A stretch of 62,863 nucleotides of DNA from Alphaproteobacteria bacterium (GCA_013288985.1 JABDAT010000004.1:1-62863), one strand, 5' to 3'; numbered from the stretch's first letter, positions 456-31,858 are shown. The notes: generated by a model not told the origin, from the sequence alone. Translations and numbers: made by a program.

Positions 456-598
456 TTATTGAGAAAACACGGCATAATAATCCAGAATTCTTACTAATTA
501 CTTATTTTTGAAGAAAAAGATTTTTGTTAACCCTTCGTAAAGGATCTCCTTGTATCAATAATCGAGAAACTGTTTTTTGATGATGCAGGGGGTACACA

Positions 599-1261: not shown

Positions 1262-1289
1262 TTGGAGTGAGGGCATGAAGGGTTAAGGC

Positions 1290-3929
1290 ATGGATGATCT
1301 AATCAGCGAATTTATCACTGAGACGTCGGAAAGCATACAGCTCCTTGACTCTGAGCTGGTCAAACTGGAACAAGATCCAGGCAATGCTACTATCCTTGGT
1401 AATATATTCCGGCTTGTCCATACCATCAAAGGAACCTGCGGATTCCTGGGCCTGCCCAGGCTGGAAATGATTGCACATGCTTCGGAGAATGTACTTGGGA
1501 AAATCCGCGACAAGGTGATTCCTGTATCTGCTCAGGCGATTTCACTGATTCTTGAATCGCTGGATTGCATCCGCAGTATTATAGATTACCTGGGTACGCA
1601 TAGCGCAGAGCCTGAAGGCAATGATTCCGGATTAATTGCCAGACTTAACGCATTTGCTGAATCCAAGGGAGTAAGCCAGGGCGCTGCGCCGTCAGCACAA
1701 ACGGAGATTGTAAGCGAAAAAGAAGTGAAGATTGCTGAGCCTCCTGTTCAGGCTTTAGTTGTGGTGCCTTCTGCGTCTGCGCTTCCAGAGGCGATAGATA
1801 TTACCACCAAAGCCAAAGAAACCGCGATTATGGAAGGATTGGCTGCGGGGGCAAAAGAACAGGGTAATGTTGCCGGTGGCGCAGCGCAGATGCAGTCAAT
1901 ACGCGTCAATATAGATGTGCTGGAAAATCTCATGCAGATGGTAAGTGAACTGGTCCTTACCCGCAATCAATTGCTCCAGATTGTCAAAGCGCGCAATGAT
2001 CATGTTTTTGCTGCGCCCTTACAGCATTTGAGCCATATCACTTCCGAACTGCAGGAAGGCATTATGAAAACGCGCATGCAGCCTATTGGCAATGCCTGGG
2101 CCAATTTTCCGCGTCTCATACGCGATTTATCGCATGATCTTGGCAAGAAAGTGGATTTGCGCATGATAGGCGCGGAAACAGAACTTGATCGCCAACTGCT
2201 GGAAATGATTAAGGATCCGCTTACTCATATGGTGCGCAATTCAGCCGATCATGGCCTTGAGCTGCCGGCTGAACGCATAAAAGCAGGCAAGCCTGAGATG
2301 GGTGTGGTTACGATTTCCGCGTTTCATGAAGGCGGGCATATTATCATTGAGATTATGGATGACGGGCGTGGCCTCCATATCGAAAAAATCAAACAAAAAG
2401 CCATTGCAAACGGCATTACTACGGAAGCGGAGCAGGCCATGCTCAGCGATCAGCAAATCATGCAGTTTATTTTCCGCCCTGGTTTTTCGACGGCAGAGAA
2501 AGTTACCAGTATATCCGGCCGCGGTGTCGGCATGGATGTAGTGCGCACAAATATTGAGAAAATAGGCGGTACCGTTGAGCTCAGCTCCACGTTTGGCAAG
2601 GGGTCTAAATTCAGTATTAAAATCCCGCTGACGCTGGCTATTATCTCCGTTCTCATTGTCGAATCCGGCGGAGAACGGTTTGCGTTGCCGCAGATTAATG
2701 TCCAGGAGTTGGTGCGCGTGGGAGGGGATTCCACATACAATGTTGAACGCATTAATAATGCCTCAGTACTGCGTTTGCGCGAGAAATTATTGCCGATGGT
2801 ATCGCTGGCGCAGATTCTGGAATTACCTGTGAGGCCGCAATCGGAAAATGAAACGGCTTTTGTCGCCGTGTGCCGGGTGGGTGGGTATAGTTTTGGCCTC
2901 ATAGTGGATCGCGTGTTCGATACCGAAGAAATCGTAGTGAAACCCACGTCGGAAGTTTTGAAAAACATTCCGCTTTATGCCGGGAATACTATTCTTGGGG
3001 ATGGGAATGTTATCATGATTCTCGATCCTAACGGCCTTGCACGCGCTACCGGCGAACGTGAAATTACCGGCGATGGCAATGATACTGCAAATCTCCAGGA
3101 TACTGCAAAGAATGCTAATCTTATCGATTTTCTTCTCTTCAAGGCAGGCAAGGGGTCGCGCAAGGCCGTGCCGCTTGAATTAGTATCGCGTCTTGAAGAA
3201 ATTGATATGACCCAGGTTGAGATGTCAGGTGATCATCCGGTGGTGCAATACCGCGGCGAACTTATGCGGCTGCAATTTCTGGAGGCATCGGAAATGCTGC
3301 CTAAGGAAGGCACAAAAGAAATAGTGGTTTTTACGTATGACAATCATACGCTGGGATTAGTGGTGGACGAAATTATCGATATTGTCAGTGCGCCTTATGA
3401 GATTAAATTACTGTCGACGGAAAAAGGATTCCTGGGCAGTATGGTAATTGAAGAAAAGACGACGGATATTGTAGACGTGACGTTCCTGTTGCGTGATATT
3501 GTGCCTCATGAAAGTATAGATGAAAATGCTTTCAAGCATGTAAGGGGCGCTAAGCTGTTGTTAGTAGAGGACAGTCCCTTCTTCCGCAGTCTTACCGTCC
3601 CGTTCCTGGCGTCATCTGGTTATAAAGTAAGCGCGGTGGGCAGTGCCAAAGAAGCATTGCAGTTGCTTGAGTCGGAACCTGATTTTGATGTCATTGTCAG
3701 TGATATAGAGATGCCGGAAATGGATGGTTACGCCTTTGCTGAAGCCTGCTGCCATCATCCTAAATTATCGCATATACCTTTGTTCGCATTCAGCGCGACC
3801 AAAAATGAAGAAAATGTTCAAAAAGGCAAACGCGCCGGTTTTAAGGACTTTATTATCAAGACCGATAGGGCGGCTTTATTACAAGCCATTGCGGCGACAT
3901 TACGCTCCACTATGAAGGAGGATGCTTAA
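1290..3929 (+). CDS. cheA: Chemotaxis histidine kinase CheA (Hpt, HATPase, two CheW domains, C-terminal receiver)
   Basis: IFRLVHTIKGTCGF Hpt, HMVRNSADHG, SGRGVGMDVV, and LLVEDS...SDIEMPEMDG receiver. Confidence 0.97.
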   Translation: MDDLISEFITETSESIQLLDSELVKLEQDPGNATILGNIFRLVHTIKGTCGFLGLPRLEMIAHASENVLGKIRDKVIPVSAQAISLILESLDCIRSIIDYLGTHSAEPEGNDSGLIARLNAFAESKGVSQGAAPSAQTEIVSEKEVKIAEPPVQALVVVPSASALPEAIDITTKAKETAIMEGLAAGAKEQGNVAGGAAQMQSIRVNIDVLENLMQMVSELVLTRNQLLQIVKARNDHVFAAPLQHLSHITSELQEGIMKTRMQPIGNAWANFPRLIRDLSHDLGKKVDLRMIGAETELDRQLLEMIKDPLTHMVRNSADHGLELPAERIKAGKPEMGVVTISAFHEGGHIIIEIMDDGRGLHIEKIKQKAIANGITTEAEQAMLSDQQIMQFIFRPGFSTAEKVTSISGRGVGMDVVRTNIEKIGGTVELSSTFGKGSKFSIKIPLTLAIISVLIVESGGERFALPQINVQELVRVGGDSTYNVERINNASVLRLREKLLPMVSLAQILELPVRPQSENETAFVAVCRVGGYSFGLIVDRVFDTEEIVVKPTSEVLKNIPLYAGNTILGDGNVIMILDPNGLARATGEREITGDGNDTANLQDTAKNANLIDFLLFKAGKGSRKAVPLELVSRLEEIDMTQVEMSGDHPVVQYRGELMRLQFLEASEMLPKEGTKEIVVFTYDNHTLGLVVDEIIDIVSAPYEIKLLSTEKGFLGSMVIEEKTTDIVDVTFLLRDIVPHESIDENAFKHVRGAKLLLVEDSPFFRSLTVPFLASSGYKVSAVGSAKEALQLLESEPDFDVIVSDIEMPEMDGYAFAEACCHHPKLSHIPLFAFSATKNEENVQKGKRAGFKDFIIKTDRAALLQAIAATLRSTMKEDA

Positions 3930-4408
3930 TGACAAAGGCGCTGCAACGTATGTCTGATCTGAATGCATATAATGCTAAAGCGCAGGACAAAGAGTTTGTG
4001 ACCATGCGCGTGGCAGGCCAATTGTTTGGCATATCGGTGATGGAGGTGCAGGATGTCTTGCGCGGCCTTAAAGTGGCGCATGTTCCTCTTGCGCCTCAGG
4101 AAATAGTGGGATCACTTAATCTACGCGGGCGTATCGTAACAGCGATAGATATGCGTATCTGCCTTGGCCTTGCGCAAGGAGATCCCGTACCCAAACATAT
4201 GATTATGAGTGTAGTGGTGGAGCATAAGAATGAATGTTTCAGCCTCATAGTGGATTCTGTCGGCGAAGTGGTGAGCCTGCCCTTTGATCAGTTGGAAAAG
4301 AATCCCGCCAACCTCTCAGGTAGGTGGAAAGAAGTGGCATCGGGCATATATAAATTGCAGGACGATTTACTTATTATTCTTGATATACAGAAATTATTAA
4401 AATTTTGA
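3929..4408 (+). CDS. cheW: Chemotaxis coupling protein CheW
   Basis: GSLNLRGRIVTAIDMR and LIVDSVGEV motifs; overlaps the cheA stop. Confidence 0.95.
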   Translation: MTKALQRMSDLNAYNAKAQDKEFVTMRVAGQLFGISVMEVQDVLRGLKVAHVPLAPQEIVGSLNLRGRIVTAIDMRICLGLAQGDPVPKHMIMSVVVEHKNECFSLIVDSVGEVVSLPFDQLEKNPANLSGRWKEVASGIYKLQDDLLIILDIQKLLKF

Positions 4409-4415
4409 GCATGTT

Positions 4416-4631
4416 ATGAAATTAAAGACCCTTTTATTTCTTTTGCTGAGTTGTGGATTTGTTCTTTCTCTTGCTGGCTGTGCGGCCGATCAGGAAATGG
4501 GATTATGTACTACACTTGGATGGTGTGACTCCGAATGTGATGAAGATAGCGGTGATTGCGGCGATACGGCTCCGTCGCCGGAATCCAGCCACACTACGCA
4601 TCATGGCACCTATGAAGACATTGCCCATTAG
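4416..4631 (+). CDS. Small Cys/Asp/His-rich putative lipoprotein
   Basis: Signal peptide with LAGC lipobox; fills the cheW-cheY gap. Confidence 0.55.
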   Translation: MKLKTLLFLLLSCGFVLSLAGCAADQEMGLCTTLGWCDSECDEDSGDCGDTAPSPESSHTTHHGTYEDIAH

Positions 4632-4649
4632 ACACATTATAACTGCAGT

Positions 4650-5021
4650 ATGTTCATGAAACATTGTCTTATCGTTGATGATTCTCGGGTGGTGCGCAAG
4701 GTTGCAAGCCGCATAATCGATAAGCTCGGCTTTGCTATATCGGAAGCGGAAAACGGGCTTGCGGCGCTTGAGTCATGCAAACAGCAATTTCCCGATCTCA
4801 TCTTGCTTGACTGGTACATGCCCGTTATGGACGGCATTGAGTTTCTGCGTGAACTTCGGGCATTACAGGGAGGCGATAAACCCGTTGTTATATTCTGCAC
4901 CACCGAGAATGAAATGGGGCATATTCAGCAAGCGCTCATCGCGGGTGCAAATGAATATATCATGAAGCCTTTTGATGAAGAAATACTGACCAGCAAGCTC
5001 TCTGAAGCGGGAATGCTGTAG
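4650..5021 (+). CDS. cheY: Chemotaxis response regulator CheY
   Basis: CLIVDDS, LLDWYMPVMDG, FCTTEN, YIMKPFD. Confidence 0.93.
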   Translation: MFMKHCLIVDDSRVVRKVASRIIDKLGFAISEAENGLAALESCKQQFPDLILLDWYMPVMDGIEFLRELRALQGGDKPVVIFCTTENEMGHIQQALIAGANEYIMKPFDEEILTSKLSEAGML

Positions 5022-6077
5022 GTGACAGCACATCCGCCATGTCCCGTTCGTGTAATGATTGTAGAAGATTCAGCCGTCATGCGCGGGCTGATAACACATG
5101 CACTGGAAGATGTGCCGGAAATTCAAATTGTGGCTACGGCATTTGATGGAGCCATGGCCATTGAGAATCTCAAGCATACGCAAGCCGATGTTATTTTGCT
5201 TGATATTGAAATGCCTTGCATGGATGGCATTACGGCGCTTCCGCAATTGCTTAAAATTTCTCCGCAATCGCGTGTCATTATGGTGTCAGATTTAATGTTG
5301 CCTAATGCAACTATCACGCTGCGAGCTCTTGAACTAGGTGCCTCAGATTATATTGCCAAACCCAGTGCGCGTAATAATCAAAACGAAACGCAGCAATTTT
5401 ATCGCGATCTCATACAAAAGATCAAAGCACTGACACCCCACCGTCATATGGACAGCGTATCTGCAGAATTACTACGTTACCATGCGCTCGCTTATCCTAC
5501 GATTCCTGTGAAGGCCATTGCTATCGGCTCCTCTACAGGCGGGCCGCAGGCGCTTGGTACTATATTTGAAGGGCTTGCCTCCCAGTTTCCGCGCCAGCCT
5601 GTGTTTATTACCCAGCATATGCCCTCTGGTTTTACAACGATTCTTGCCCGGCATCTCAGTCAACTTGTTCAGCACCCATGTGTGGAAGGCAAGGACGGCG
5701 AAGTGGTGCAGGATAGTTCAGTTTATCTGGCGCCTGGCGATTATCATATGGTGCCGGAAAAATTGGGCAGCAAAACGATTATCCGCATCAATCAGGATCC
5801 TTTGGTAAATTTCTGCCGCCCTGCGATTGATCCCATGCTGCACGCACTCTTGAAAATTTATGGCAAACATCTTCTTGTGGTAATTCTGACGGGTATGGGG
5901 TGTGATGGATTGGCAGGTTCGCGTGCGATAGCGGCACAAGGAGGCACTATAATCGCCCAGGATGCGGGTACGTCTGTAGTGTGGGGAATGCCGCGCGCTG
6001 TCACAGAAAGTAAGTTATGCAGTGCTGTGCTGCCTGTCAATGAGATCGCCCCTTATATTATAAGGGCCTGTATATGA
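5022..6077 (+). CDS. cheB: Chemotaxis methylesterase CheB
   Basis: Receiver plus IGSSTGGPQAL, TQHMP, LTGMGCDG, VVWGMP. Confidence 0.96.
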   Translation: MTAHPPCPVRVMIVEDSAVMRGLITHALEDVPEIQIVATAFDGAMAIENLKHTQADVILLDIEMPCMDGITALPQLLKISPQSRVIMVSDLMLPNATITLRALELGASDYIAKPSARNNQNETQQFYRDLIQKIKALTPHRHMDSVSAELLRYHALAYPTIPVKAIAIGSSTGGPQALGTIFEGLASQFPRQPVFITQHMPSGFTTILARHLSQLVQHPCVEGKDGEVVQDSSVYLAPGDYHMVPEKLGSKTIIRINQDPLVNFCRPAIDPMLHALLKIYGKHLLVVILTGMGCDGLAGSRAIAAQGGTIIAQDAGTSVVWGMPRAVTESKLCSAVLPVNEIAPYIIRACI

Positions 6078-6886
6078 ATGCTGAGGAATTTAATTTTATC
6101 AGTCTGCTGCTTAAGAAACGTTCTGGTCTTGCGATTGACACCGATAAAACCTATCTTCTGGAAAGCCGCCTGCTTCCCATTGCCCGCCAGTGCGGTGTGC
6201 AGGATCTATCTGAATTTGTACAATTATTGAAAACAAAACCTGCCGAAAATGTTATTGCGGAAGTGGTGGATGCAATGACTACGAATGAGTCCATGTTTTT
6301 TCGTGACAAGAAGCCGTTTGATCAGCTTCGCCAAATTATACTTCCGCGAATAAAGAAAATACACCGCAGTGGTAAGATACGCATCTGGTGTGCAGCCTGT
6401 TCTAACGGTCAGGAGCCTTATTCTGTTGCCATGGCACTGCTTGAGGAGGCGGAAAATATGGCGGGATTTACGTATGAAATACTCGCAACTGATATTTCAT
6501 TGCGTGTGCTTGCAAAAGCAAAAGAAGGATTATACAGCCAATTCGAAGTGCAGCGCGGACTTCCCGTTCAAATGCTTCTTAAATATTTTCAGCAAAAACC
6601 GGGAGCTCTTTGGCAGGTGAATGCTATTTTACAGGATATGGTGACGTTCCGGCAGCAGAACTTATTGGATGATCTGACAAAACTTGGAAAGTTTGATATT
6701 ATTTTGTGCCGCAATGTGCTTATTTATTTTGATGACCCTATGAAACGCGCTATCCTCGGCAGGATAAGCCAACTGCTGCATCCGGAAAGCGTATTGATGC
6801 TGGGAAGTGCAGAAACAGTTATTGGAATAAGTGATAAATATCAATTACTTGGTAATGAGCGCGGCATACATATACTCGCCGTTTAA
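6074..6886 (+). CDS. cheR: Chemotaxis methyltransferase CheR
   Basis: MTTNESMFFRD, IWCAACSNGQEPYS, FDIILCRNVLIYF. Confidence 0.96.
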   Translation: MNAEEFNFISLLLKKRSGLAIDTDKTYLLESRLLPIARQCGVQDLSEFVQLLKTKPAENVIAEVVDAMTTNESMFFRDKKPFDQLRQIILPRIKKIHRSGKIRIWCAACSNGQEPYSVAMALLEEAENMAGFTYEILATDISLRVLAKAKEGLYSQFEVQRGLPVQMLLKYFQQKPGALWQVNAILQDMVTFRQQNLLDDLTKLGKFDIILCRNVLIYFDDPMKRAILGRISQLLHPESVLMLGSAETVIGISDKYQLLGNERGIHILAV

Positions 6887-6902
6887 AAAACGGCGAGTAT
6901 AT
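6870..6902. terminator. Bidirectional hairpin between convergent cheR and ctrA
   Basis: ATATACTCGCCGTTT-AAA-AAACGGCGAGTATAT, a perfect 15-bp stem. Confidence 0.75.
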
Positions 6903-6911
6903 TAGTAATGC

Positions 6912-7637
6912 CTATACCGCAGCTTCTTCAATATCTTCTTCGATATATTTGTTGCCCAGACCGTCGGGTTCTTTGAGTACGTAACCACGTCCCCATACCG
7001 TTTCAATGTAATTCTCTCCGCCGGCTGCATGCGCAAGTTTTTTGCGCAGCTTACAGACGAAGACGTCGATGATTTTAAGTTCAGGTTCGTCAATGCCACC
7101 GTAAAGATGATTTAAGAACATTTCTTTTGTAAGCGTTGAACCCTTACGCAAACTTAAGAGTTCAATAATACCATATTCTTTGCTGGTGAGATGCAGGGGC
7201 TTGCTATCGACTTCAACAGAGCGCGTGTCAAGATTGACGGAAAGCTTGCCGGTGCGGATAACCGACTCAGAGTGGCCTTTTGAGCGGCGCACAATGGCCT
7301 GGATACGAGCGATGAGCTCACCTTTGTTAAAGGGTTTGGTAAGATAATCGTCGGCGCCATAACCCAATCCTTTGATTTTTTGATCAGGACCGGAGAGGCC
7401 AGAAAGAATGAGGATTGGCGTGGTGATTTTTGCAGCACGGAAGCGGCGTAATACTTCATACCCATCAATATCCGGTAGCATCAAATCAAGGATTATGATA
7501 TCATAATCGTAAATTTTACCAATTTCCAAGCCCTCTTCTCCGAGTTCGGTTGTATCACAGATGATACCCTCAGACGCGAGCGAGAGCTCGATTGCCTTGG
7601 CGGTAGATGAATCGTCTTCTACTAATAGAACGCGCAT
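6912..7637 (-). CDS. ctrA: Cell-cycle master response regulator CtrA
   Basis: MRVLLVEDD...[34 protein letters not shown]...[10 protein letters not shown]. Confidence 0.97.
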
Positions 7638-7701
7638 TGTGCCCCCAATTGTTAATTTTCAGTATTCAGCAAAGGTTAATATATAACCATATTTTGTATA
7701 A

Positions 7702-7716
7702 TTAAACAACTGTTAA
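7702..7716. promoter_or_regulatory. CtrA box upstream of ctrA (autoregulation)
   Basis: TTAA-ACAACTG-TTAA is a perfect TTAA-N7-TTAA. Further half-sites lie at about 7674 and 7751. Confidence 0.7.
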
Positions 7717-7855
7717 TATTTGCCGTAAGACACAATGCATTATTTGATATTTAACCATAAGTTGAGGTTTTATGGCCCCTCCTCATAGAGGAAGGGAGGA
7801 GACAATTGGTTAATATACTCTAAAATTTAGATTAATTGCGTTGGATTGCCCGTTT

Positions 7856-8134
7856 CTATCGCCCTCTTCCGCCGCCGTCGCTTGTGCCGGCAAACCGATT
7901 CCAGCGATCGTCTGAAAGACGTTTACTGTTATTCAGCCGGTTGCGGATGGAAACAAGCTGGGCGCTCCAGATTTTTTCTTCTTCTTTAAGCCTTTTCTCG
8001 GTAGGCTTTATTTCAATTTCAGGCGCGCCTATATCTACCTTTTCACGATGCAATTCAGCATGCTGGAATATCATCCAGTTGCGCTTATTGCGCTCGCGAA
8101 TCTTCTTCTTTTTATCTTCTTCCTGGCGTGACAA
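7856..8134 (-). CDS. Hypothetical basic protein
   Basis: 92-aa ORF with a GGAGA RBS, following the 8150-8305 ORF. Confidence 0.55.
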   Translation of the reverse strand: MSRQEEDKKKKIRERNKRNWMIFQHAELHREKVDIGAPEIEIKPTEKRLKEEEKIWSAQLVSIRNRLNNSKRLSDDRWNRFAGTSDGGGRGR

Positions 8135-8149
8135 CGATGGAGTCTCCCC

Positions 8150-8305
8150 TTAAATATTTTTGCTGTCGCCGCGCGAGTCTTTTATTTGCTTGCGCCGCAA
8201 CAGATTGCGCCGCAATGCTATAGCAAGCTTTTCCTTTTGTTGGACAGATTTCTTAGAAGATGCATCAGATTTATTATCCGCTATGGGTTGGTTTTTTGTA
8301 TCCAT
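8150..8305 (-). CDS. Small conserved-type alphaproteobacterial hypothetical protein
   Basis: EKLAIALRRNLLRRK motif; ATG at 8305; divergent from tRNA-Thr. Confidence 0.6.
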   Translation of the reverse strand: MDTKNQPIADNKSDASSKKSVQQKEKLAIALRRNLLRRKQIKDSRGDSKNI

Positions 8306-8460
8306 ATGATTTTTCTTTTTTCTTTGACTCTTTACTACTTTATCTAAATTACACGTTGGGGCCATTAAGGTCAAATGACGCTTGCGTTACGAATAGGGTT
8401 GTGGCATTTTCGCGCGCGTTTAGCAAACGCCTGATAATTTCAGGCTTTTTTAATGAAGCC

Positions 8461-8497
8461 GCCGCTATAGCTCAGGGGCAGAGCACGTCATTGGTAA
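8461..8497 (+). pseudogene. Orphan 5' half of tRNA-Thr(GGT), ending in the anticodon loop
   Basis: 37 nt identical to 8596-8632, followed by non-tRNA sequence. Confidence 0.9.
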
Positions 8498-8595
8498 GGG
8501 TAAGCTCTGGGTTATATTGGTAAGAGAATAGAAGAAGTTAACTAAAACCAATTTCTTCCGGGTAGTGTACGGGGGAGTTTGGAATGAGTAAAAAG

Positions 8596-8670
8596 GCCGC
8601 TATAGCTCAGGGGCAGAGCACGTCATTGGTAATGACGGGGTCGCATGTTCGATTCATGCTAGCGGCACCA
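8596..8670 (+). tRNA. tRNA-Thr(GGT); its 3' part is attL of the satellite
   Basis: GCCGCTA/TAGCGGC acceptor stem, CGTCA-TTGGTAA-TGACG anticodon arm, GTTCGATTC T-loop, encoded CCA. Confidence 0.97.
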
Positions 8671-8724
8671 TTTTAATAAATATAAATTGCCCTGATTAAG
8701 CCGTTTATTTGGCTTGGAGCATTT

Positions 8725-9417
8725 TTATCCTATATATTCCCTAAATAAGACCTTTGCATAATTTTTACCGTAGAATCCGATAATAACTTTGCTAAACGCA
8801 ATTAGCATTAAATATGTGAGCAATGTACAGATGCTGATTAACACCGCCAAATAAATCTTAACGTATGTACTGAAGAAAACTATATTGATAATAGAAAAAC
8901 ATATTCCAAGGACTGCCCCGCCAATTACATTTCGCATCGCTCCATATTCAATATTATGTTGTAATAAGAAGGAGTTTTTATGCAGTTTTTTTCTAATAAG
9001 CGCCATCGTTTCAACAATTCTTGTGCGCGCTGAATTTTCGTCTTTGGTTTCCTCTTTTTTAGTAGGTAATTTAATATTAAAATCGTGAGAAACTTTATCA
9101 CGAAATTTATTTTTATAGTCATCACTATAGGTTTTATCTCCGAACATCATAAACGTTGTTGTGGGCATTTGTGATTCTTCTTTGAAATACGCACGTTCAA
9201 ACACATTTTTGCCAAATAATCGACCTGTTTCAGATAAAAAATATAAGCATACACCTGATATAGTCAGATTGGATATAATCTTAGCACCCAAAACACCGCC
9301 AACAAATTTTGCAAATTCCTCACTTACGAAGAAGTGGTTAAATACCATTATTGGAAGAATGATTGAAAAAATAGCAGGTAAAATACGTCCCTTTAAAGCA
9401 TAAGCACTGAATACCAT
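8725..9417 (-). CDS. Putative 4-TM membrane protein (candidate defence effector)
   Basis: Two N-terminal and two C-terminal hydrophobic segments around a soluble domain (HNIEYGAMRN); starts 1 nt after the upstream MBL gene stop. Confidence 0.75.
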   Translation of the reverse strand: MVFSAYALKGRILPAIFSIILPIMVFNHFFVSEEFAKFVGGVLGAKIISNLTISGVCLYFLSETGRLFGKNVFERAYFKEESQMPTTTFMMFGDKTYSDDYKNKFRDKVSHDFNIKLPTKKEETKDENSARTRIVETMALIRKKLHKNSFLLQHNIEYGAMRNVIGGAVLGICFSIINIVFFSTYVKIYLAVLISICTLLTYLMLIAFSKVIIGFYGKNYAKVLFREYIG

Positions 9418-9418
9418 A

Positions 9419-10282
9419 TTAAATCCATACTCTCTGGGGTTTTGTCACTTCAAGTCGAGTTGGACCCCATGACCCTTGATGAAAATCAAAAGTAATTTCT
9501 CCATCACTTCGTGTGGTAAGTACATGGCGAATTTTCTCATTTCTGAATGGCCCACCTTTTTTTGCAATACGTCTGTAAAAAGGAATAGTTTTTTGCGTAT
9601 CGTATTGATAGCCCTTATCAGAAATCACAACATAATAAACATTAGAGAGATATTGGATTGCCTCTTCACAGCAAGCAGGTTCGCGCCCATGGTGTGGTGC
9701 AACAAATACATTTGTTTCTGATAAAGCTTTCCTAAAAGCATCATTTTTTAACAACTCTTTGCATCCAGCGCGCTCTAAATCTCCCGTAAACATAACGCCT
9801 ATGCCATGACATTTTAAGAAAACGATCATGCTTAAATTATTTTCATCATCAAATGTTGGATAATCATTATTAAATAACTGATACTTCATGCCAGTAAATT
9901 GGGGCCATGCAGGTTGCCCCAAGAGAGTGCCGCCTCCAGAAAAAGTTGTATCTATGGTTTTAACTAACCGTTCAATGCCCGCCCCCATTCCATCTTCACT
10001 TTTAAGTCTTTTGATTGTCGATGATGTCACCGAAGTATTACGAAACAGCCACTGCACATTAATTATATCAAAAAGATCATTTGCTCCGCTTACATGGTCT
10101 TCATCATAATTTGTGATTGCTAACATTTCGATTGAGGATACATTTTGCTGCTTTAAATACGTACCTGGTTTCCATCCCGTTGTTGCGTTGTGCCCACAAT
10201 CTATCATCATGCGAGCACCATTATCATCCGTTAACAACGCACATGCGCCATGTTCAACATCAAAGATCTGTAATTTTACCAT
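9419..10282 (-). CDS. ComEC/Rec2-type MBL-fold hydrolase with a variant metal motif
   Basis: FDVEHGACAL, TNYDEDH (H to N), FTGD, PHHG; lacks the final GHP motif. Confidence 0.8.
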   Translation of the reverse strand: MVKLQIFDVEHGACALLTDDNGARMMIDCGHNATTGWKPGTYLKQQNVSSIEMLAITNYDEDHVSGANDLFDIINVQWLFRNTSVTSSTIKRLKSEDGMGAGIERLVKTIDTTFSGGGTLLGQPAWPQFTGMKYQLFNNDYPTFDDENNLSMIVFLKCHGIGVMFTGDLERAGCKELLKNDAFRKALSETNVFVAPHHGREPACCEEAIQYLSNVYYVVISDKGYQYDTQKTIPFYRRIAKKGGPFRNEKIRHVLTTRSDGEITFDFHQGSWGPTRLEVTKPQRVWI

Positions 10283-10297
10283 TATAGCATCCTGTTA

Positions 10298-11140
10298 TTA
10301 ATTTTCTTTTGTAAGCGACCAACTTCCGCCGTCTTTCAGTTCAGCGCACATATGTCCCTGCTCATCAGTACGATAAACTTTATTACCTTTATTTGACCCT
10401 TTGGAGTGTTTCTCGTAATATTCGAGCGCTTTTTCATGTGGATGACCATGGGCATTGTCACCAACTGATAAAATGGTCATATCCGGATTTTTAGTGCGTA
10501 TATGATGGGTATAGTAATAGTCATCATTTGGGTCATCGAAATACGTGAGTGAGCCATGATGGCTTCCTAAAAGCAATGAGCAGGATAAATCACTGTCGTC
10601 ATAATGTTTATGAATATGTTTCCATGTCGCGGCGTCCGTATCACCCGTTAGAAGAATACTTCCATGATTAATATCATTTACCCTATCACGATGCACCACT
10701 TTTACCACGATGCTTTGAGCATTAGCATTATCGGCTAAATCATCATTTTTTGAATTTAGTATGCGTAATCGTGTATTTCCATAATCGTAACGCGTCTTCC
10801 ATTTCACCTCTGTAAAACCAATCTTGCGACGAAGTTCCATATATTGTCTGTATTCAGTGCTGTCTGGTGTTGTACCTATAACGCCAGAATCCCAGATATG
10901 TTTAATGGGGAACCATTCATGGACTTTTTTAATACCACGCATGTGGTCAGCATCACGATGAGAGCAGATAAACACATCAATATTTGTAAGCCAACCAATG
11001 TGCTCTGCTATATAACCAAGCACCATATCTTCATTGTCATTGGTAACATTGCAATCATATAAGAAGATTTTGCCGTTATCGAGCTGCAACAATGTCATAT
11101 TGCCTTGACCAACATTAATAAAATGCGCTTTTGTTGGCAT
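10298..11140 (-). CDS. ComEC/Rec2-type MBL-fold metallo-hydrolase
   Basis: FINVGQGN, SHRDADH, LLTGD, SHHGS, HGHPH. Confidence 0.87.
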   Translation of the reverse strand: MPTKAHFINVGQGNMTLLQLDNGKIFLYDCNVTNDNEDMVLGYIAEHIGWLTNIDVFICSHRDADHMRGIKKVHEWFPIKHIWDSGVIGTTPDSTEYRQYMELRRKIGFTEVKWKTRYDYGNTRLRILNSKNDDLADNANAQSIVVKVVHRDRVNDINHGSILLTGDTDAATWKHIHKHYDDSDLSCSLLLGSHHGSLTYFDDPNDDYYYTHHIRTKNPDMTILSVGDNAHGHPHEKALEYYEKHSKGSNKGNKVYRTDEQGHMCAELKDGGSWSLTKEN

Positions 11141-11350
11141 TACACACGCCCTTATAAAAATTTATAAAGGTTCGATATAGAATTGATATTTAATATTTCA
11201 AGGGTAGTTGAACTCAAATTTTAAATTCGCCCTTTAGTTTAGTTAAGCAAATTTTGCATAAATACCGATATAAGTTGCTCCCAATAAAAAACTGCTTTGC
11301 CACTGCGCAAAAGTAACATATCTTTCTCACAGAGCCAGTGATTCTGGTTC

Positions 11351-11527
11351 CGGGTCTTTGAAAACCCTCGATGAACGGTAAGGCATCAAACCGTGATTGG
11401 TGCCGTCTCTCGACCTTTGGGTCGGGCCGACGGCGCACATATAACAGGCCTATGGCTGAAAACGCCGTGGCTGTTTCATCGCAGCTTTCAAACGACCCGA
11501 TCACCACCGAGATTATCTCGGTGGTTT
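11351..11527 (+). ncRNA. C4/CI-like antisense RNA with upstream target and downstream hairpin
   Basis: GGGTCTTTGAAAACCCTCGATGAAC (11352-76) is near-complementary to GTTTCATCGCAGCTTTCAAACGACCC (11473-98); ACCACCGAGAT-T-ATCTCGGTGGT hairpin follows. Confidence 0.55.
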
Positions 11528-11550
11528 CTCTTAACGTTCGGGAGGTTGTT

Positions 11551-11769
11551 ATGAAAATAAACCAAATTCTTATTATAGCGATAATTGCTGCGGGTCTTTC
11601 TGGCTGTGCCAATTCAGGACAACAGCCGACATTAGTAATGCTCCAAAATCCACAAACCAAAGAGATAGTTAAATGTGATGACGACATTTATGCGAAAACA
11701 AAAACATGTGCAGAAGCTTACGAAAAAGGAGGATGGGTACGATTAGGAGCCTATGTACCTAAATTTTGA
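11551..11769 (+). CDS. Small lipoprotein (72 aa)
   Basis: GGAGG RBS before ATG 11551; LSGC lipobox. Confidence 0.7.
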   Translation: MKINQILIIAIIAAGLSGCANSGQQPTLVMLQNPQTKEIVKCDDDIYAKTKTCAEAYEKGGWVRLGAYVPKF

Positions 11770-11779
11770 GTGAATATTT

Positions 11780-12262
11780 ATGAAACGGAACTTGATTCTA
11801 ACCATACTTATTATTGGCCTCTCTGCCTGTCAGCCAATACAGCAAAAATCTTGGTATAAAGAAGGGGCAACACAACAGGATTTTGCAATGGATATGGGGC
11901 AATGTAGGGCCCAAGCATTTAGTATAAGTGGGGGAAGCTTATTGCAAATAGCAATAGTTCAGAATGCTTGTATGCAGGGTAAGGGTTGGAGCCTACAACA
12001 GCAAATGAATGCGGTGTCTGCTGATTCTGCCCCTGCAGTTGTTACAAATTCCAGTGAGGGCTGTATTTTGGATGAAGGTAAGGTCGTATACCCTTTAGAT
12101 AAAGTTCTATATTGCAGCAAAGAACATTTAAATCTGGCGGCAATAGCGTCTGGAGTATCACCACCGAATCGAACTGGGCACGGCTGTGTTTTAGAAAAAG
12201 GCGATGTAATATTACCGCTGAGCCTTTTGCTTTATTGTGATCCTGGGCATATACGCCGTTAA
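11780..12262 (+). CDS. Cys-rich lipoprotein with an internal duplicated motif
   Basis: LSAC lipobox; GCILDEGKVVYPLDKVLYC / GCVLEKGDVILPLSLLLYC repeats. Confidence 0.7.
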   Translation: MKRNLILTILIIGLSACQPIQQKSWYKEGATQQDFAMDMGQCRAQAFSISGGSLLQIAIVQNACMQGKGWSLQQQMNAVSADSAPAVVTNSSEGCILDEGKVVYPLDKVLYCSKEHLNLAAIASGVSPPNRTGHGCVLEKGDVILPLSLLLYCDPGHIRR

Positions 12263-12351
12263 TTTAAGTGTTACGGTAAGTAACTGTAAAATGTTCTCTA
12301 CCAGAGCCATTTCTATTAGAATTCATGATTTTTAATCAATGGAAAATCAAA

Positions 12352-12735
12352 AAATGGTTGCGGGTGCTTACGGAGAAATACTGCAGGATGTCCCGCGATA
12401 ATCTGATTTCTTCAAAATAATCAAATTTACTGCTCCAGATAAAGTTCCCAGTCTATATGGGAATGAATACAGCTTCTTAATTGAACTTTTCAATTTTATT
12501 CAAAAAACAGCAAAATGGTTACGGGCGCATACGAGAGAATGTTGCCGGATGTCTGATGTTATCTTGCGTTCTTAAATCAGTTTTATCGTACCAGTAATCG
12601 GAGCTCACTTGTATATAGGGTAAGCTCTATACAAGATTTCTTATTACATAACAGATTGTTACTCTAAGGTAGTCGCGAGCGGGGGTAGTACAGGGGGAGC
12701 GCCAGTATAAAAACGGACTGGGCGGACTGGGTTTA
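12352..12735. repeat. Putative replication origin region: diverged direct repeats, a hairpin and short tandem repeats
   Basis: AAATGGTT(G/A)CGGG..GGATGTC at about 12352 and 12513; CTTGTATA..TATACAAG inverted repeat 12608-12635; CGGACTGGG x2 at about 12714-12731. Confidence 0.5.
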
Positions 12736-12819: not shown

Positions 12820-15204
12820 TTATCTGAACGGGACACCGTCTTGTGATGCGTGCAATAGACTAATGCCTTTATAACAAGGGGTTCGTTTATCTGCCCCACG
12901 AGGTCTTGTCGGATGTACTTTAGGGAATGCTTCGCGCAGCTTCTTGGTAAATAGTTCTTTTGTTCCTGTCGATGTATTGCCATTTTTTACACACCAATAT
13001 TTATATGCCTCAAACAGGGAGTCTTTGGTAACGAATTCTCTTGGCCCCAGAACACAGCACTCAGATACGAAGCTGCGAATCGGTGCACTAAGGGTCATTA
13101 TCGTTTGTCGTGCTTCTGACGATGAGGAGGGTTCTATGAAGTGACCTCTTTCCCGTAACCGCCGCCATCCGACAATAGCCCAGTGAAGAATACCTGTCAT
13201 TTCGGGAATAAGTTTTTCAAGTAAGCCGGAATCTTCACGACCGAGGAAGCTTTGATGCATCTGGAGAATTATAAAGCGATTCCCTAGGGCACCACTACTA
13301 TCGGAAAAACAGGGTAGCTCGTTTGTTATAATAAAAAACCGTGCGGCAATCCGACCTTCCCACGTCGCCTTATATTTACGCTGAACTGATACGCTGTCTT
13401 CTCCACTTATGCGCAGCAAGGTTTCTGCTATGGATGCAGTATCGGATTTTCGTCCAAGACGCATGTCCGAAATAACTGCAAGCTGGCGTCCAATTAAGGG
13501 CTGTAACCCGAAATTTTCACCTAATCCATTAAGCGTAGGAGAACAAACATTCCGTTCACCCACAAGACGTTGGAGAATACGAGCTATTGTTCCCTTCCCT
13601 GACCTTGTGGGGCCGATAAGCAGAAAGATTTTCTGCTGAGAAGTATCAGGTATCAGAAGGTAGCCAAATATTTCCTGCAAAGCTGAAATTGCCTTAATGT
13701 CCCTCGGCCATACTTCTTTGAGAAAGGCTAACCATTTCACAGGCTCCGAAGCATTCTGGTCATAATCAAAATCGAGCGCGTTCCGGGTAAAGAATGTAGG
13801 GGAAGAAGGTAACAATTTGTCTGTTGGAAGGTGCAGTAAGCCATTACGGACAGCAATAATTTCGTGTGCAGGAAGTTGTTCATCACGACCAATCCATGCA
13901 GGAGGAGATACATTTTCTCGGTCTAAATGGGCGATCGCTTGTAAGGCTTCCAGCGTATTGGCGACCTTATTTTTATTAGGCTGGAATGGAACAGGGGGCT
14001 TATCCAACTGATATTGCACGCTGCGGTCAAGAAAATGCCACATCCATGCACGAACAGTTCCATCCTCAATTTCCCGGTAGCAGCCCCCATCATATTCTAG
14101 AAAATCGCCATTATACCGTTTAAGGCTAACATGTTCGCGCGCAATAAACTCACGGGCGCATAACATAGGGTCATTGTGATTGAGTATTGGGCCGGGCCGG
14201 GGTTGACGTTCTAATGCACGATTTATCTGACGTTCAGCATACTTTTGGGGAGTGTGCTCCCCCTTTTCGTAGATGTGGGCACTAATGCCAAGCTCGCGGT
14301 TTAGCAGGATACCCAGAATTTTTTCATCAGGCACATCTGCCTTAATCAGCGTACAACACACCCAAAACACTGCATCGCTTCTATCGCCATCAAAATCGTA
14401 TTCTGGCGTTAGGCCATGAAGACATACTGCGGTAACCTTGTTTCTTTTTTCCTCGTCCAGTCTTGAAAGGTCAAGCGTTTCAGGTCGTACAGTGATGGAG
14501 GGCACATTCTGGATATTGTTTTGAGCTTTGTGCTTATCCGTAGTGACTCGTATTGGTACAGACGCAGTAAATTGATTCAGGGAATAAGAGTGTTCTGTCA
14601 TCTCTACCACATCTGCCAGCGCAGGCACGCGCCCCTTGCTGGCCTTCTTTTTGTTGGGAATATTGATAGTGCCCGGCAAACGCATAATGCGGTCAATGTT
14701 CTGACAGTTATCGCCGCCAAGCGTGTTCGCAAGATGGATATTATAGCGCTCTACTTCTGCTGCCTTAGTCAAATCGCCATCAATCAGCACGGGTTCTTTA
14801 AGTTTCCAGAACGCCTGATATCCGCCGCCACTGAAATTGATAATCGTGGGCACTGGAATTCCGTCCGGAGGATTACGCAGTAAATCCAATATTCTGACTT
14901 GCTCATCTTTAATATCTTCACCAGCGCGGGGGTCTATATCCACATGCAGCTCGCGCACTTCTTTGATGTCAGTTTTTTCAGCCTTTTTATCGCGGAGTGT
15001 GATGGTAGGGTTTACGTGGAAATATAAATTCTCCTTACCGTTGCGAGTGGCAATCCAGTCGTATAAGGCAGTGGTATTATTTAAGTCTGAAAATGCTTTG
15101 GCCGTCAGCGTGCCAGTCTCAGGGTGTATTGCAACTAAGATGCAGTTGGTATCATACCACTTTAAAAAATCGACTGCTTGCTCGTTATTAGGCTGTATTG
15201 TCAT
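12820..15204 (-). CDS. Phage/plasmid primase-helicase (RepB-type primase + D5/SF3 helicase, P4 family)
   Basis: FSGGGYQAFWKL and DRIMRLPGT primase motifs; AVRNGLL D5_N; GPTRSGKGT Walker A; ITNELP. Confidence 0.9.
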   Translation of the reverse strand: MTIQPNNEQAVDFLKWYDTNCILVAIHPETGTLTAKAFSDLNNTTALYDWIATRNGKENLYFHVNPTITLRDKKAEKTDIKEVRELHVDIDPRAGEDIKDEQVRILDLLRNPPDGIPVPTIINFSGGGYQAFWKLKEPVLIDGDLTKAAEVERYNIHLANTLGGDNCQNIDRIMRLPGTINIPNKKKASKGRVPALADVVEMTEHSYSLNQFTASVPIRVTTDKHKAQNNIQNVPSITVRPETLDLSRLDEEKRNKVTAVCLHGLTPEYDFDGDRSDAVFWVCCTLIKADVPDEKILGILLNRELGISAHIYEKGEHTPQKYAERQINRALERQPRPGPILNHNDPMLCAREFIAREHVSLKRYNGDFLEYDGGCYREIEDGTVRAWMWHFLDRSVQYQLDKPPVPFQPNKNKVANTLEALQAIAHLDRENVSPPAWIGRDEQLPAHEIIAVRNGLLHLPTDKLLPSSPTFFTRNALDFDYDQNASEPVKWLAFLKEVWPRDIKAISALQEIFGYLLIPDTSQQKIFLLIGPTRSGKGTIARILQRLVGERNVCSPTLNGLGENFGLQPLIGRQLAVISDMRLGRKSDTASIAETLLRISGEDSVSVQRKYKATWEGRIAARFFIITNELPCFSDSSGALGNRFIILQMHQSFLGREDSGLLEKLIPEMTGILHWAIVGWRRLRERGHFIEPSSSSEARQTIMTLSAPIRSFVSECCVLGPREFVTKDSLFEAYKYWCVKNGNTSTGTKELFTKKLREAFPKVHPTRPRGADKRTPCYKGISLLHASQDGVPFR

Positions 15205-15283: not shown

Positions 15284-15562
15284 TTATGCTGATTGTGTGT
15301 GCCTTGCCTTTGCTGCACGCTGCGCTAATGCCTTACGTGCGATAGCCTCAACGCTGGCAGAATTCATGTCGCGGTTCTGCATACGGGATGCAATCCACTC
15401 ATCAATTTCTTTTTCCACAAATGCTATACGTTGTGCCCCAACTTGCACAGAGCGCGGGAATTTACCCTGCTCCATAAGCCGGTATATATGGACTTTGCTA
15501 TAGGGAATTCGGTCGATCACTTCATCGAGGGTTATCAGACGGACGTTAGCGGTGTTGGACAT
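15284..15562 (-). CDS. alpA: AlpA family regulator/excisionase
   Basis: LITLDEVIDRIPYSKVHIYRLMEQGKFPRSVQVG...EIDEWI. Confidence 0.9.
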   Translation of the reverse strand: MSNTANVRLITLDEVIDRIPYSKVHIYRLMEQGKFPRSVQVGAQRIAFVEKEIDEWIASRMQNRDMNSASVEAIARKALAQRAAKARHTQSA

Positions 15563-16118: not shown

Positions 16119-16802
16119 AACCCAATAGCTAGGTGCGTTGAGTAATTTTTTAAAATCATTGTGTTCTAGTACCGTACGAACTTGCTCAGGTTTCATCTCT
16201 TTATTGGCAGTAAGCACATCACAGCAAAATTTGGTAAACGAATTTCCGGCTTCGTAGGTGCCTTCTTTAAAGTATGGGTTCGGTTTTTTACCCTTAATAT
16301 TATTATCGCGCCAGAAATGTGCAACGGATTGGACAGCCATTTCCATCCAAAGGGGTAGAGGTCTATTCCCTGCTGTGCCTTTAACCTGTACTATCTTGTC
16401 CGTAATATCCCGCAACTCTGTCAGCCCGGAAATAAGATCAGGTAAACGGTCATTATAATCAGCATATGATAATACCTCTACCAGATGCCAAGTATTACGC
16501 TTTCCAGACTTGTCATCCTCCACAATATCAATAATTTCACTAAGAAGTTTTGCTACTTGCTTTAGTTTCTTCCGAGTTTGCTTCCATTCAGGTAAATCCT
16601 TTGGAACTATTAATTTTCCAGATTCAGAAGCTATACCAGAGCCATATTTTGGTGCCACTTCAACTTTGAATAAGACCTGACACAATGCGGCACAGCATTC
16701 CGCGTCTTGTTGCAACTCTGGATATTTTTGCAGGAGCTGCTTCGCAGATTCTTCGCGCACGCGTGTCCAGCGTTTCATAAATTCTTCTAATTGTTTATTC
16801 AC
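16116..16802 (-). CDS. Hypothetical protein coupled to the integrase
   Basis: 228-aa ORF overlapping the integrase stop. Confidence 0.7.
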   Translation of the reverse strand: MNKQLEEFMKRWTRVREESAKQLLQKYPELQQDAECCAALCQVLFKVEVAPKYGSGIASESGKLIVPKDLPEWKQTRKKLKQVAKLLSEIIDIVEDDKSGKRNTWHLVEVLSYADYNDRLPDLISGLTELRDITDKIVQVKGTAGNRPLPLWMEMAVQSVAHFWRDNNIKGKKPNPYFKEGTYEAGNSFTKFCCDVLTANKEMKPEQVRTVLEHNDFKKLLNAPSYWV

Positions 16803-18063
16803 TCACCACCCCCATCACATGTTGTGCCCAGCGCTCCAGCGCGGTGCGTTTTTCGTCCAGATAATCGTGTTTGTTATATGTTTTTTGCAATCCGGGTTTA
16901 GCGTGGCCTAACACTGCATCACGGGCTTCGCGGCCAACACCCAATGCGGCCATCCCACTTTCGCACGTCACGCGGAAGTCATGTACCCGATAGGCAGCCA
17001 GTGTTTTTACTTCTACACCTTCTGGGGTGCTTTCCTGTACAATCTTCTGTGCCAATGTATCCAATCGTGCCTTGGCCTTACTGAAGCCACTTATCGGGCA
17101 TTCTCCAGCAGTGGTGGTAAACAGAAAATCGCCTCTGTTCCAGCGTGGCAATTTTTCCAGAATGTCCCAGACCTGCGGTGCCAGCGGCACTACATGGTCA
17201 CGTTTTCCTTTGTAACGTTCGCGTGGAATATCAAGGCATTTCTGCCGCTCACTGATTTCTGGCCTGCTTGCGTCGGCAATTTCGCGCAGACGCTGACCTG
17301 TTAGCATAAGAACCTTATACATCGATCCAAAGGGGTATTCCATTTGTTCTGCAGCCTTCCAGATAGCACGCAATTCCCAATCTGCTAATGCCCGTCCGGC
17401 CTCCTGCACCGGACGCAGGTCGCGCCGCGCCATTCCGGCCAGTGGATTTGCAGATATTATTTCACGGTCTGCAGCAAAGTTAAATATCCGGGACAGGTGT
17501 TTGCGTATCTCGCGGGCAATACCTACACGCTTATCCTTTATTAAATTATCCAGCAGCTCATGCACATCGCTACGGCGGATTCCACTGATGGGACGATTTC
17601 TCCATTCAGGGAATACATGTAATTCCATCATCCGTTGTGTAGCGTGCCAGTTTCTTGTGCTGGGCTTAGCGTGTAATTCAATAAAGCGCTTTACTACGCT
17701 TTCCATGCTATTGGTGACGCGTTGCAATAATTCCTGCTGTCGCAGTACAATTGGGTCACGGCCTTCTGACGCAAGCCGTAATGCATCGCGTGCTTTCTCC
17801 CGAGCTTTTACCAAATCTACTATAGGCCACACGCCTAATGTCAGACGCTGCTGCTTGCCTTTTAGAATATGACCTTTGCTACTTAATCCACCTGCTCCGT
17901 CAACACGGTATATAAGCGACCAGCTTTTTACGCCTTTTTCAGTAACCCGGATACAAAGACCAGGTACTGTTGTATCTCCGAGTTCTAACCTTCCTGTAGG
18001 GGGAGGGCGGAGGCGTTCTATGGCAAGCGAGGTAAAAGTCTTATTCATCGTTTTCTCAGGCAA
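16795..18063 (-). CDS. int: Tyrosine integrase, P4-like, with an N-terminal arm-binding domain
   Basis: GLCIRVT..GVKSW arm domain; LTGQRLREI, HDFRVT, LGH, TYNKHDY catalytic motifs. Confidence 0.93.
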   Translation of the reverse strand: MPEKTMNKTFTSLAIERLRPPPTGRLELGDTTVPGLCIRVTEKGVKSWSLIYRVDGAGGLSSKGHILKGKQQRLTLGVWPIVDLVKAREKARDALRLASEGRDPIVLRQQELLQRVTNSMESVVKRFIELHAKPSTRNWHATQRMMELHVFPEWRNRPISGIRRSDVHELLDNLIKDKRVGIAREIRKHLSRIFNFAADREIISANPLAGMARRDLRPVQEAGRALADWELRAIWKAAEQMEYPFGSMYKVLMLTGQRLREIADASRPEISERQKCLDIPRERYKGKRDHVVPLAPQVWDILEKLPRWNRGDFLFTTTAGECPISGFSKAKARLDTLAQKIVQESTPEGVEVKTLAAYRVHDFRVTCESGMAALGVGREARDAVLGHAKPGLQKTYNKHDYLDEKRTALERWAQHVMGVVSE

Positions 18064-22150: not shown

Positions 22151-22196
22151 ATTGGTAATGACGGGGTCGCATGTTCGATTCATGCTAGCGGCACCA
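22151..22196 (+). other. attR: displaced 3' half of tRNA-Thr
   Basis: 46/46 identical to 8625-8670; preceded by a tandem ATTGGTAA. Confidence 0.93.
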
Positions 22197-22267
22197 TAAC
22201 ACACACTATTATAGTAATGATTCCGGTATAAGCTCTGTGAGCGGCGGGATTAGTAGAAGTGAAGGAG

Positions 22268-27384: not shown

Positions 27385-27388
27385 AACA

Positions 27389-28952: not shown

Positions 28953-28960
<8 letters not shown>
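28637..28960 (-). CDS. atpQ: N-ATPase AtpQ (AtpZ/AtpI-like)
   Basis: GFGMFGLIGWSVTVPTLLG..LGIWLD...GCWNAAHWV. Confidence 0.85.

Positions 28961-31858
<2,898 letters not shown>

Follow-up and report, generated by a model that had tools for sequence, protein, structure and literature searches.

We analyzed a 62,863-nucleotide stretch of DNA from an Alphaproteobacteria bacterium (GCA_013288985.1, JABDAT010000004.1:1-62863; hereafter the window), which carries on its minus strand an operon of three genes encoding two proteins with a ComEC-type metallo-beta-lactamase (MBL) fold, MBL-1 and MBL-2, and a membrane protein, TM230 (Table 1). The conserved unit to which this operon belongs is a two-gene pair of an MBL gene and a gene for a transmembrane (TM) protein, and the second MBL is present in a minority of loci. 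Judged from its sequences, the family appears to be a widespread, horizontally moving pair in which a cytoplasmic phosphodiesterase of the ComEC-type MBL fold, probably a metal-dependent DNase, accompanies a small four-helix inner-membrane protein. By analogy, the pair would be a defence module in which the membrane protein controls or positions ComEC-type DNases, a reading to which we give an even chance. An earlier interpretation made from the DNA alone (the sequence-only reading) had seen in these genes an unnamed three-gene anti-phage system on a phage satellite, working through a nucleotide signal.

The three genes are arranged head to tail in the order MBL-1, MBL-2, TM230, with gaps of 15 and 1 nt. 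At the first junction the TAA stop codon is followed by 15 nt and an ATG, with an AGGA located 8 to 11 nt upstream of this ATG; at the second, TAA and ATG are separated by 1 nt. The GC content is 0.34 to 0.39 in the region of the operon (8501-11000) versus 0.42 to 0.53 in 1-8500. Coordinates, junctions and composition thus agree with the tight, AT-rich operon of the sequence-only reading. Scanning 8500-12400 for promoters and terminators returned 17 promoter-like sites (13.8 expected) and 6 terminator-like sites (3.1 expected); because these counts are not above chance, we do not claim a promoter. A search of sequencing runs for the operon listed one DNA run, possibly the source sample, and no RNA run.

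Linkage between the MBL and TM genes was analyzed in 80 genome loci with MBL-2 homologs, using crude calling of open reading frames (ORFs; first start after a stop) and Kyte-Doolittle windows for TM segments. By script, a small multi-TM gene abutting MBL-2 on the same strand was detected at 59 of the 80 loci, and 6 further loci (L010, L011, L013, L036, L054 and L056) have the order TM, second MBL, MBL-2, which brings the total to at least 65 of 80. On which side of MBL-2 the TM gene lies is variable. Direct profile matches identified the partner as TM230-type in 14 of the 80 loci and as PDC-M48A-type (the membrane component of a database candidate discussed below) in 6, and the other partners were recognized through iterated profiles or hydropathy. 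On viral contigs, a TM neighbour was present at 10 of 13 MBL-2 loci. The linkage is also observed from the other side: close MBL-1 homologs have an adjacent TM gene at 9 of 13 loci (12 metagenome loci plus L084, which came from the search of phylum genomes), mostly without MBL-2, and the TM230 plasmid matches that were examined (3 of 3, from 5 records) all adjoin MBL genes. A second MBL abuts the pair in 9 of the 80 genome loci, so the conservation of all three genes, for which the sequence-only reading had proposed a neighbourhood check, gave way to a two-gene core. The trios have variable order, TM, MBL-2, MBL-1 in L008 and L014, MBL-1, TM, MBL-2 in L087, and MBL, TM, MBL in L091, L179 and a Runella plasmid. 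Since trios recur in differing orders, the trio of the window is a recurrent minority variant with its own combination of MBL-1, MBL-2 and TM230.

Plasmids provided further arrangements. On the Runella slithyformis plasmid pRUNSL03 (L180, 33700-43062), a single strand encodes an MBL, a SEC-C protein, a TM230 homolog, another MBL and a small ORF; an MBL plus serine protease pair, of the protease-activated MBL type, follows, and an MvaI/BcnI restriction endonuclease lies upstream. This places two kinds of MBL defence module side by side. The MBL-2 homologs on Rahnella and Agrobacterium plasmids are annotated as 'hypothetical protein', and the Agrobacterium record has a TM230-type neighbour.

Defence models were taken from PADLOC-DB 2.0.0. 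MBL-2 matched the PDC-M48B model PDLC04674 at 8.6e-71 (236 bits, profile positions 2-256 of 270), and MBL-1 matched the PDC-M48B model PDLC04673 weakly (3.6e-9). The other component, PDC-M48A, is a 4-TM protein of ~164 aa, as seen in the neighbour scan (matches in L008 and L014 at E about 1e-61). As in PDC-M48, an MBL gene of the window stands beside a small multi-TM gene on the same strand, TM230 starting immediately past the MBL-2 stop, and L008 and L014 carry a true PDC-M48A together with MBL-2 and a close MBL-1 homolog. In contrast to PDC-M48, the window has 2 MBLs, and TM230 is longer (230 aa) with an inserted cytoplasmic stretch. Six other members of the TM230 family gave no match to the PDC-M48A models, and iterated TM230 and PDC-M48A profiles converged on 36 shared ORFs, which may reflect a remote homology of the two or profile drift, as can happen with membrane proteins. 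The PDC-x systems are presented as unpublished candidates in PMC11811056, and the term 'PDC-M48' occurred in none of the 8.4 million literature texts searched. A literature search on ComEC-type or MBL anti-phage systems with a membrane protein did not bring up an MBL plus TM pair among the matches listed. Since MBL-2 matches PDC-M48B, this kind of system had already been flagged and the operon is not wholly unnamed: by its sequence, it is a two-MBL variant, with a TM partner that PADLOC does not model, of a database-candidate kind, and not a categorically new system. What survives of the earlier claim of novelty is that no published named system matches.

Several known systems resemble the operon in part. 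The window MBLs are not ComEC/Rec2 competence proteins, as they scored 47.7 and 36.2 bits with TIGR00361 (cut-off 190.05), are 280 and 287 aa long and have no TM segment. MBL-1 aligns end to end with the MBL domain of ComEC and the MBL-2 model superposes best on this domain, whereas both window proteins are stand-alone, without OB fold or fused channel, and their partner is a separate gene of another family. The 6A-MBL model NF058524 gave 52.5 bits with MBL-1 and 20.1 with MBL-2 (cut-off 220), and no E1, E2 or JAB gene is present on the island that carries the operon, which sets this system aside too. Among the MBL-2 loci, L041 (1788-4743) and L005 (7453-9348) have E1-E2 (and JAB) proteins adjoining the MBL-2/TM pair, L041 with a further MBL of 395 aa, an arrangement reminiscent of 6A-MBL-type modules. 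The protease-associated MBL of the Avs1a type was rejected, the values for MBL-2 being E 0.027 in PADLOC and 8.9e-4 in NCBIfam (18.1 bits versus a cut-off of 420), and the scan of island ORFs revealed no protease domain. Protease-activated defence MBLs (in Avs, Hachiman, DRT and similar systems) are described as effectors that act as Zn-dependent dsDNA nucleases and are remotely homologous to ComEC (Evans et al., bioRxiv 10.1101/2025.11.14.688446); they share a defence-type MBL fold with the window proteins, but in the window the partner is a membrane protein, not a protease. Rst_Hydrolase-3Tm, which combines a HAD-like hydrolase with a TM protein in a hotspot of P4-like satellites and blocks T7 (Rousset et al. 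2022, PMC9122126), is alike in placing a hydrolase and a TM protein in a satellite cargo slot; we rejected it because both enzymes of the window are MBL-fold and not HAD-like, and no sequence relation was found. Kiwa and Zorya (bioRxiv 10.1101/2024.10.26.620412) resemble the operon in its proposed logic alone, a membrane component plus soluble DNA-acting proteins, but have no significant sequence or fold relation to the window proteins. One PDC-M48A protein gave a faint KwaA match (E 0.0047).

The two MBLs differ in their metal-binding motifs. By translation and family alignment, MBL-1 contains SHRDADH, TGD, SHHGS and GHP, and its residues H61, D65, H66, D167, H194, H195, H233 and P234 are invariant across 22 homologs. 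MBL-2 has NYDEDH instead, with N58, D60, D62, H63, D168, H197 and H198 invariant across 23 homologs, and in the profile alignment it has no His at the GHP position of MBL-1. The intact HxDxDH/TGD/HHGS/GHP set read earlier in MBL-1, and the NxDxDH motif and missing GHP read in MBL-2, are confirmed. Because the Asn-for-His exchange and the missing GHP His are invariant in the 23 homologs, MBL-2 is a conserved variant and not a decayed copy. Measured against the ComEC-type MBL domain, MBL-1 has all motifs and MBL-2 has the same fold with Asn for the first His and no last His. The 2 families align with an hhalign probability of 95.9%, placing H61/D63/D65/H66 of MBL-1 onto N58/D60/D62/H63 of MBL-2. 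We collected 662 homologs of MBL-1 (the best 120 of 662 at 56-75% identity) and 1459 of MBL-2 (the best 120 of 1459 at 59-72%).

Pfam recognizes just the generic MBL family in both enzymes (Lactamase_B 2.7e-5 for MBL-1). The MBL-1 family profile matched the ComEC MBL domain 9ic4_A over its full length (E 2.4e-15), with HxDxDH, HHGS and GHP in common, and the AlphaFold2 model of MBL-2 (predicted local distance difference test, pLDDT, 88.5) had the ComEC MBL domain 9ic4 as its best fold match in the PDB (E 6.3e-16, template-modelling scores 0.68/0.73). The second-best fold match was the phosphorylcholine esterase Pce (E 5.6e-12), and CPSF73/RNase J nucleases were also among the next. MBL-2 cross-matches the MBL effector models LmuA (8e-12) and RTasMBL (9e-11) of PADLOC. 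This kinship with ComEC, together with the fact that the assayed defence MBLs are Zn-dependent dsDNA nucleases, suggests that the window MBLs are metal-dependent DNases. No hydrophobic segment or signal peptide was found in MBL-1 or MBL-2, so both are presumably cytoplasmic. Both also match the PHROG family phrog_7043 ('tail protein', MBL-like region at ~620-870 of 1077) at 4.8e-15 and 1.6e-13, which means that ComEC-type MBL domains occur in phage tail proteins too.

The AlphaFold2 model of TM230 is all-helical (pLDDT 91.9, predicted template-modelling score 0.85) and consists of 2 membrane helices, a soluble helical stretch of ~85 residues and 2 more membrane helices, the layout that had been anticipated for the third gene. 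The hydropathy script saw 3 strong windows, the second helix being weaker. From the distribution of Lys and Arg, both termini and the central stretch are predicted to be cytoplasmic, where the MBLs would be. At E<=1e-3 the TM230 family has 639 cluster representatives, almost all of them about 230 aa long, and it diverges faster than the MBLs (25-47% identity to the window protein in a sampled alignment); PTT (85-87), QHNIEYG-x2-RN-x2-GG (152-167) and YA (220-221) are conserved. Pfam, NCBIfam and PADLOC scans assigned TM230 to no family, and a Pfam scan of 37 family members yielded sub-threshold matches of TM type alone, such as DUF2207_C in 9 of 37. Foldseek found no PDB match to the model at E<=0.001 (best rows PomA, ExbB and bestrophin, E about 1, template-modelling score about 0.25), the best VIA-align Z of 7.4 (designed helical bundles, GPCR (G-protein-coupled receptor)-like) lies within the common range for helical proteins, and in the ESM Atlas the look-alike clusters were all without annotation. 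A complex prediction for MBL-2 and TM230 scored 0.00 with controls not run, and says nothing either way. A search for longer forms of TM230 found none, which is weak evidence, and one fusion came from the search of cluster representatives: P0340 (500 aa) joins a PNP_UDP_1 domain (5-242, 4.9e-18) to a full TM230 domain (270-496). PNP-type domains are listed among reused defence modules in the introduction of bioRxiv 10.1101/2025.09.30.679545, and the fusion indicates that the TM230 module can combine with another enzyme type reused in defence systems.

We propose a mechanism in which TM230 would hold, position or switch on the MBL nuclease or nucleases at the inner face of the inner membrane, presumably through contact with them. 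The trigger could be phage or other foreign DNA that enters the cell or perturbs the envelope, upon which the nucleases would cut DNA, either that of the invader or that of the whole cell (abortive infection). The sequence-only reading had instead proposed that the MBL pair makes, senses or destroys a nucleotide second messenger gating a membrane effector; the third protein would then be a killing pore. The pairing of an active with a variant MBL, on which this idea builds, is real, MBL folds include phosphodiesterases and Pce is the second-best fold match of MBL-2, and PMC9122126 treats the small TM proteins of several systems as abortive effectors. In the 80 genome loci, 13 viral-contig loci and 13 MBL-1 loci, though, the conserved cluster includes no gene for making a signal, such as a cyclase or TIR (small ORFs were not profile-scanned). 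Most loci have a single MBL, which rules out a maker and remover pair as the general mechanism. Both MBLs have the nuclease domain of ComEC as their closest match, and among solved pores and channels there was no match to the TM230 model. We therefore consider nucleotide signalling improbable. An anchor or sensor coupled to a nuclease is preferred because no signal gene is conserved, one MBL is usually enough and the enzyme partner of TM230 is swappable.

Relatives of the operon are patchy, move horizontally and are often found among defence genes. MBL-2 was present in 1 of 40 relatives, where it is again preceded by a TM gene. Of 400 phylum genomes sampled, 1 had MBL-1; this gene had no relatives on viral contigs and no plasmid match at E<=1e-20. 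Flanks were scanned with PADLOC in 2 sets, the first comprising 90 ORFs >=330 aa from 28 loci (E<=1e-15) and the second 70 ORFs >=480 aa from 37 loci (E<=1e-40). A strong non-MBL neighbour was detected at 14 of 28 and 10 of 37 loci, respectively (24 of 65 overall). As there was no background control, we speak of frequent defence company and not of measured enrichment, so that the defence-island context predicted for the homologs holds as an observation of neighbours and stops short of the enrichment that had been predicted with it.

Some of these neighbourhoods are specific. In L049 (2421-12771) and L051 (801-12765) the pair is inserted in the order HmaA, MBL-2, TM, HmaB, HmaC; in L010, L011 and L013 the order is HmaB, HmaC, TM, MBL, MBL-2, the extra MBL having 318 aa; and in L004 a type I restriction-modification (R-M) operon, hsdR-M-S, lies directly upstream of the pair. 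In L030, a DrmMI/type IIG-like protein of 1380 aa and GajA lie downstream, and other scanned loci have OLD, HEC-02, PDC-S24/S39/S73 and E1-E2/JAB proteins. Hma has been re-described as DUF499-centred and BREX-related, with auxiliary nucleases of several superfamilies recruited to BREX-related loci, in a preprint whose main text contains neither 'metallo' nor 'membrane' (bioRxiv 10.1101/2025.10.09.681413). Pairs embedded in or abutting Hma operons in 5 loci, after a type I R-M operon in another, together with this reported recruitment, would fit an auxiliary nuclease arm of Hma/DUF499 BREX-related or type I R-M systems, which in the window would be orphan or host-assisted. Set against this idea, Hma proteins were found in 5 of the 65 scanned loci, with a DUF499/HmaC-like protein in L054, and most loci have no Hma or R-M within 6 kb. 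The window differs from Hma systems in lacking HmaA, HmaB and HmaC, its operon stands alone on a small island without a methylase, and PADLOC models a separate two-gene candidate; we regard a purely auxiliary role as quite unlikely. Another suggestion is that the operon encodes an ordinary phosphodiesterase associated with the membrane, serving housekeeping or the envelope, for instance as a Pce-like esterase. The Pce match (E 5.6e-12) would be compatible with it, but the patchy occurrence (1/40 relatives, 1/400 phylum genomes), the position as AT-rich island cargo, the frequent Hma and R-M neighbours and the lack of an export signal in the proteins make it highly improbable.

The operon could also serve the element that carries it, as an addiction module, by interfering with a helper phage or with competitors, or in ComEC-like DNA processing during transfer. 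It lies on a mobile element beside an att site, ComEC-type MBL domains act on DNA crossing the membrane (going by the family names of the PDB matches), the same MBL type is found within the phage tail family phrog_7043 (4.8e-15), and TM230 has a faint match to the NCBIfam model of the ComEC N-terminus (E 0.035). This last match is far under its cut-off (14.4 versus 36.5 bits), many loci are chromosomal and defence-island-like without adjacent mobility genes, and the MBLs, having no signal peptide or hydrophobic segment, are predicted to be cytoplasmic, unlike a DNA-uptake nuclease. A DNA-uptake nuclease acts outside the cytoplasm. We hold such a selfish or element-serving role to be rather improbable.

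A number of observations weigh against a defence module made of a membrane protein and ComEC-type DNases. No same-strand adjacent TM gene was found at 15 of the 80 MBL-2 loci; among these, 2 have an opposite-strand ORF of the TM family, 1 is cut by the contig end and 1 has its TM gene at a distance of 475 nt. Sequenced plasmids very seldom carry MBL-2 (9 of 72,556 records), and phage records hardly ever do (3 weak matches). In 41 of the 65 scanned loci there was no strong PADLOC match, and the counts of defence neighbours come from crude ORF calling without background control. TM230 had no PADLOC match to the PDC-M48A models at E<=1, and the TM230 and PDC-M48A-type families aligned with an hhalign probability of 1.8%, which is not significant. 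PDC-M48 is, moreover, itself an untested candidate, as are its relatives. MBL-2 lacks 2 canonical metal-ligand histidines and, going by its residues, may not be catalytic. The assignment of the TM protein as sensor or anchor and not as effector draws on analogy and on module swapping and is weak, since the swapping is two-way, MBL-2 also pairing with other TM families.

A broader model, which we consider possible but doubtful, would make TM230 a modular family of inner-membrane sensors wired to several MBL DNase subfamilies or to a PNP-type nucleosidase. With 1 or 2 MBLs, it would destroy incoming DNA at the membrane upon DNA entry or envelope perturbation, and in some Hma/BREX-related systems it would act as the nuclease arm; the trio of the window, with its canonical and Asn-variant MBLs, would be a heteromeric nuclease like the active/variant pairs of other MBL nucleases. 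Should the module prove protective, a widespread type of defence would be added in which a small membrane protein is coupled to ComEC-type nucleases. PDC-M48 as modelled would then capture part of the family alone, and the pair would be a candidate for the nuclease step in the Hma/BREX-related operons that carry it. In the window itself, a satellite-like island of an uncultured soil bacterium is seen to have a defence-like cargo slot.

The operon is cargo of this island, which is integrated at a tRNA-Thr gene (Table 1). Exact direct repeats of 47 bp delimit an element of 13,526 bp, and their 33-nt core has 2 exact matches in the window, with 0 expected from 100 shuffles. The TM230 stop codon lies 54 nt from the 3' end of the tRNA gene. 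The recurrence of the tRNA-Thr repeat at the far end makes the operon the tRNA-proximal cargo of an integrated 13.5-kb island. Integrase, AlpA excisionase and primase-helicase occur together, as in phage satellites of the P4-like or PICI (phage-inducible chromosomal island)-like type, on a small, tRNA-integrated and repeat-bounded element, and 2 ORFs of no known family lie alongside them on the island minus strand. No capsid or packaging gene was matched by PHROG among the 12 island ORFs scanned, of which 5 have no family at all. The att-proximal position named in the sequence-only reading is thus borne out by repeats and tRNA, and its 'satellite' is better worded as satellite-like, a fair but unproven term since no capsid or packaging gene was found. 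The host is a metagenome-assembled genome of 1.31 Mb, 61% complete.

Table 1. Features of the operon and of the island that carries it, in window coordinates.
Feature	Coordinates	Strand	Length	Basis
MBL-1, stand-alone ComEC-type metallo-beta-lactamase-fold protein	10298..11140	-	280 aa	ORF call and translation
MBL-2, ComEC-type MBL-fold variant, PADLOC PDC-M48B match	9419..10282	-	287 aa	ORF call and translation
TM230, membrane protein without Pfam, NCBIfam or PADLOC family	8725..9417	-	230 aa	ORF call and translation
tRNA-Thr(GGT)	8596..8670	+		ARAGORN; 3' half is the left copy of the island direct repeat (8625-8671)
Right copy of the 47-bp direct repeat, attR-like	22151..22197	+		Repeat family D2 and pattern search
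Tyrosine integrase	16795..18063	-		Pfam Arm-DNA-bind_3, Phage_int_M, Phage_integrase; PHROG integrase 3.5e-47
AlpA-type excisionase/regulator	15284..15562	-		Pfam Phage_AlpA 7.3e-14; PHROG excisionase 1.1e-11
Primase-helicase, D5/phage-type, island replication module	12820..15204	-		RepB_primase N-terminus, D5_N, DUF5906, Pox_D5; PHROG DNA primase 4.5e-90

The opposite, attR-proximal end of the island encodes a 368-aa ORF without known family (18264-19370) and, on the minus strand (19444-21885), an 813-aa superfamily 2 (SF2) helicase (ResIII/DEAD/Helicase_C); this end may be a second cargo slot. The C-terminal half of the helicase is made of three ~255-nt tandem repeats (19540-20352) with 70-78% identity, and the protein has weak PADLOC matches to PbeA and to a type IV restriction endonuclease (about 1e-12). 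Between the operon and the primase, 2 small plus-strand ORFs (11371-11769 and 11780-12262) start with hydrophobic leaders that, by eye, look lipoprotein-like and end in ...LSGC and ...LSAC; neither ORF had a match in Pfam, PADLOC or PHROG. At 8461-8497, 135 nt upstream of the intact tRNA-Thr gene, 37 nt of its 5' half are repeated exactly (repeat family D4); this copy may be the scar of an earlier integration or excision. Beyond the island, a PhaC gene (Pfam, 22268-24094) precedes a minus-strand run of ATP-synthase genes (24178-30738) encoding beta, epsilon, 2 small membrane ORFs, a, c, b, alpha and gamma, which, on visual inspection of the translations, resembles an N-type (Na+-type) ATPase operon.

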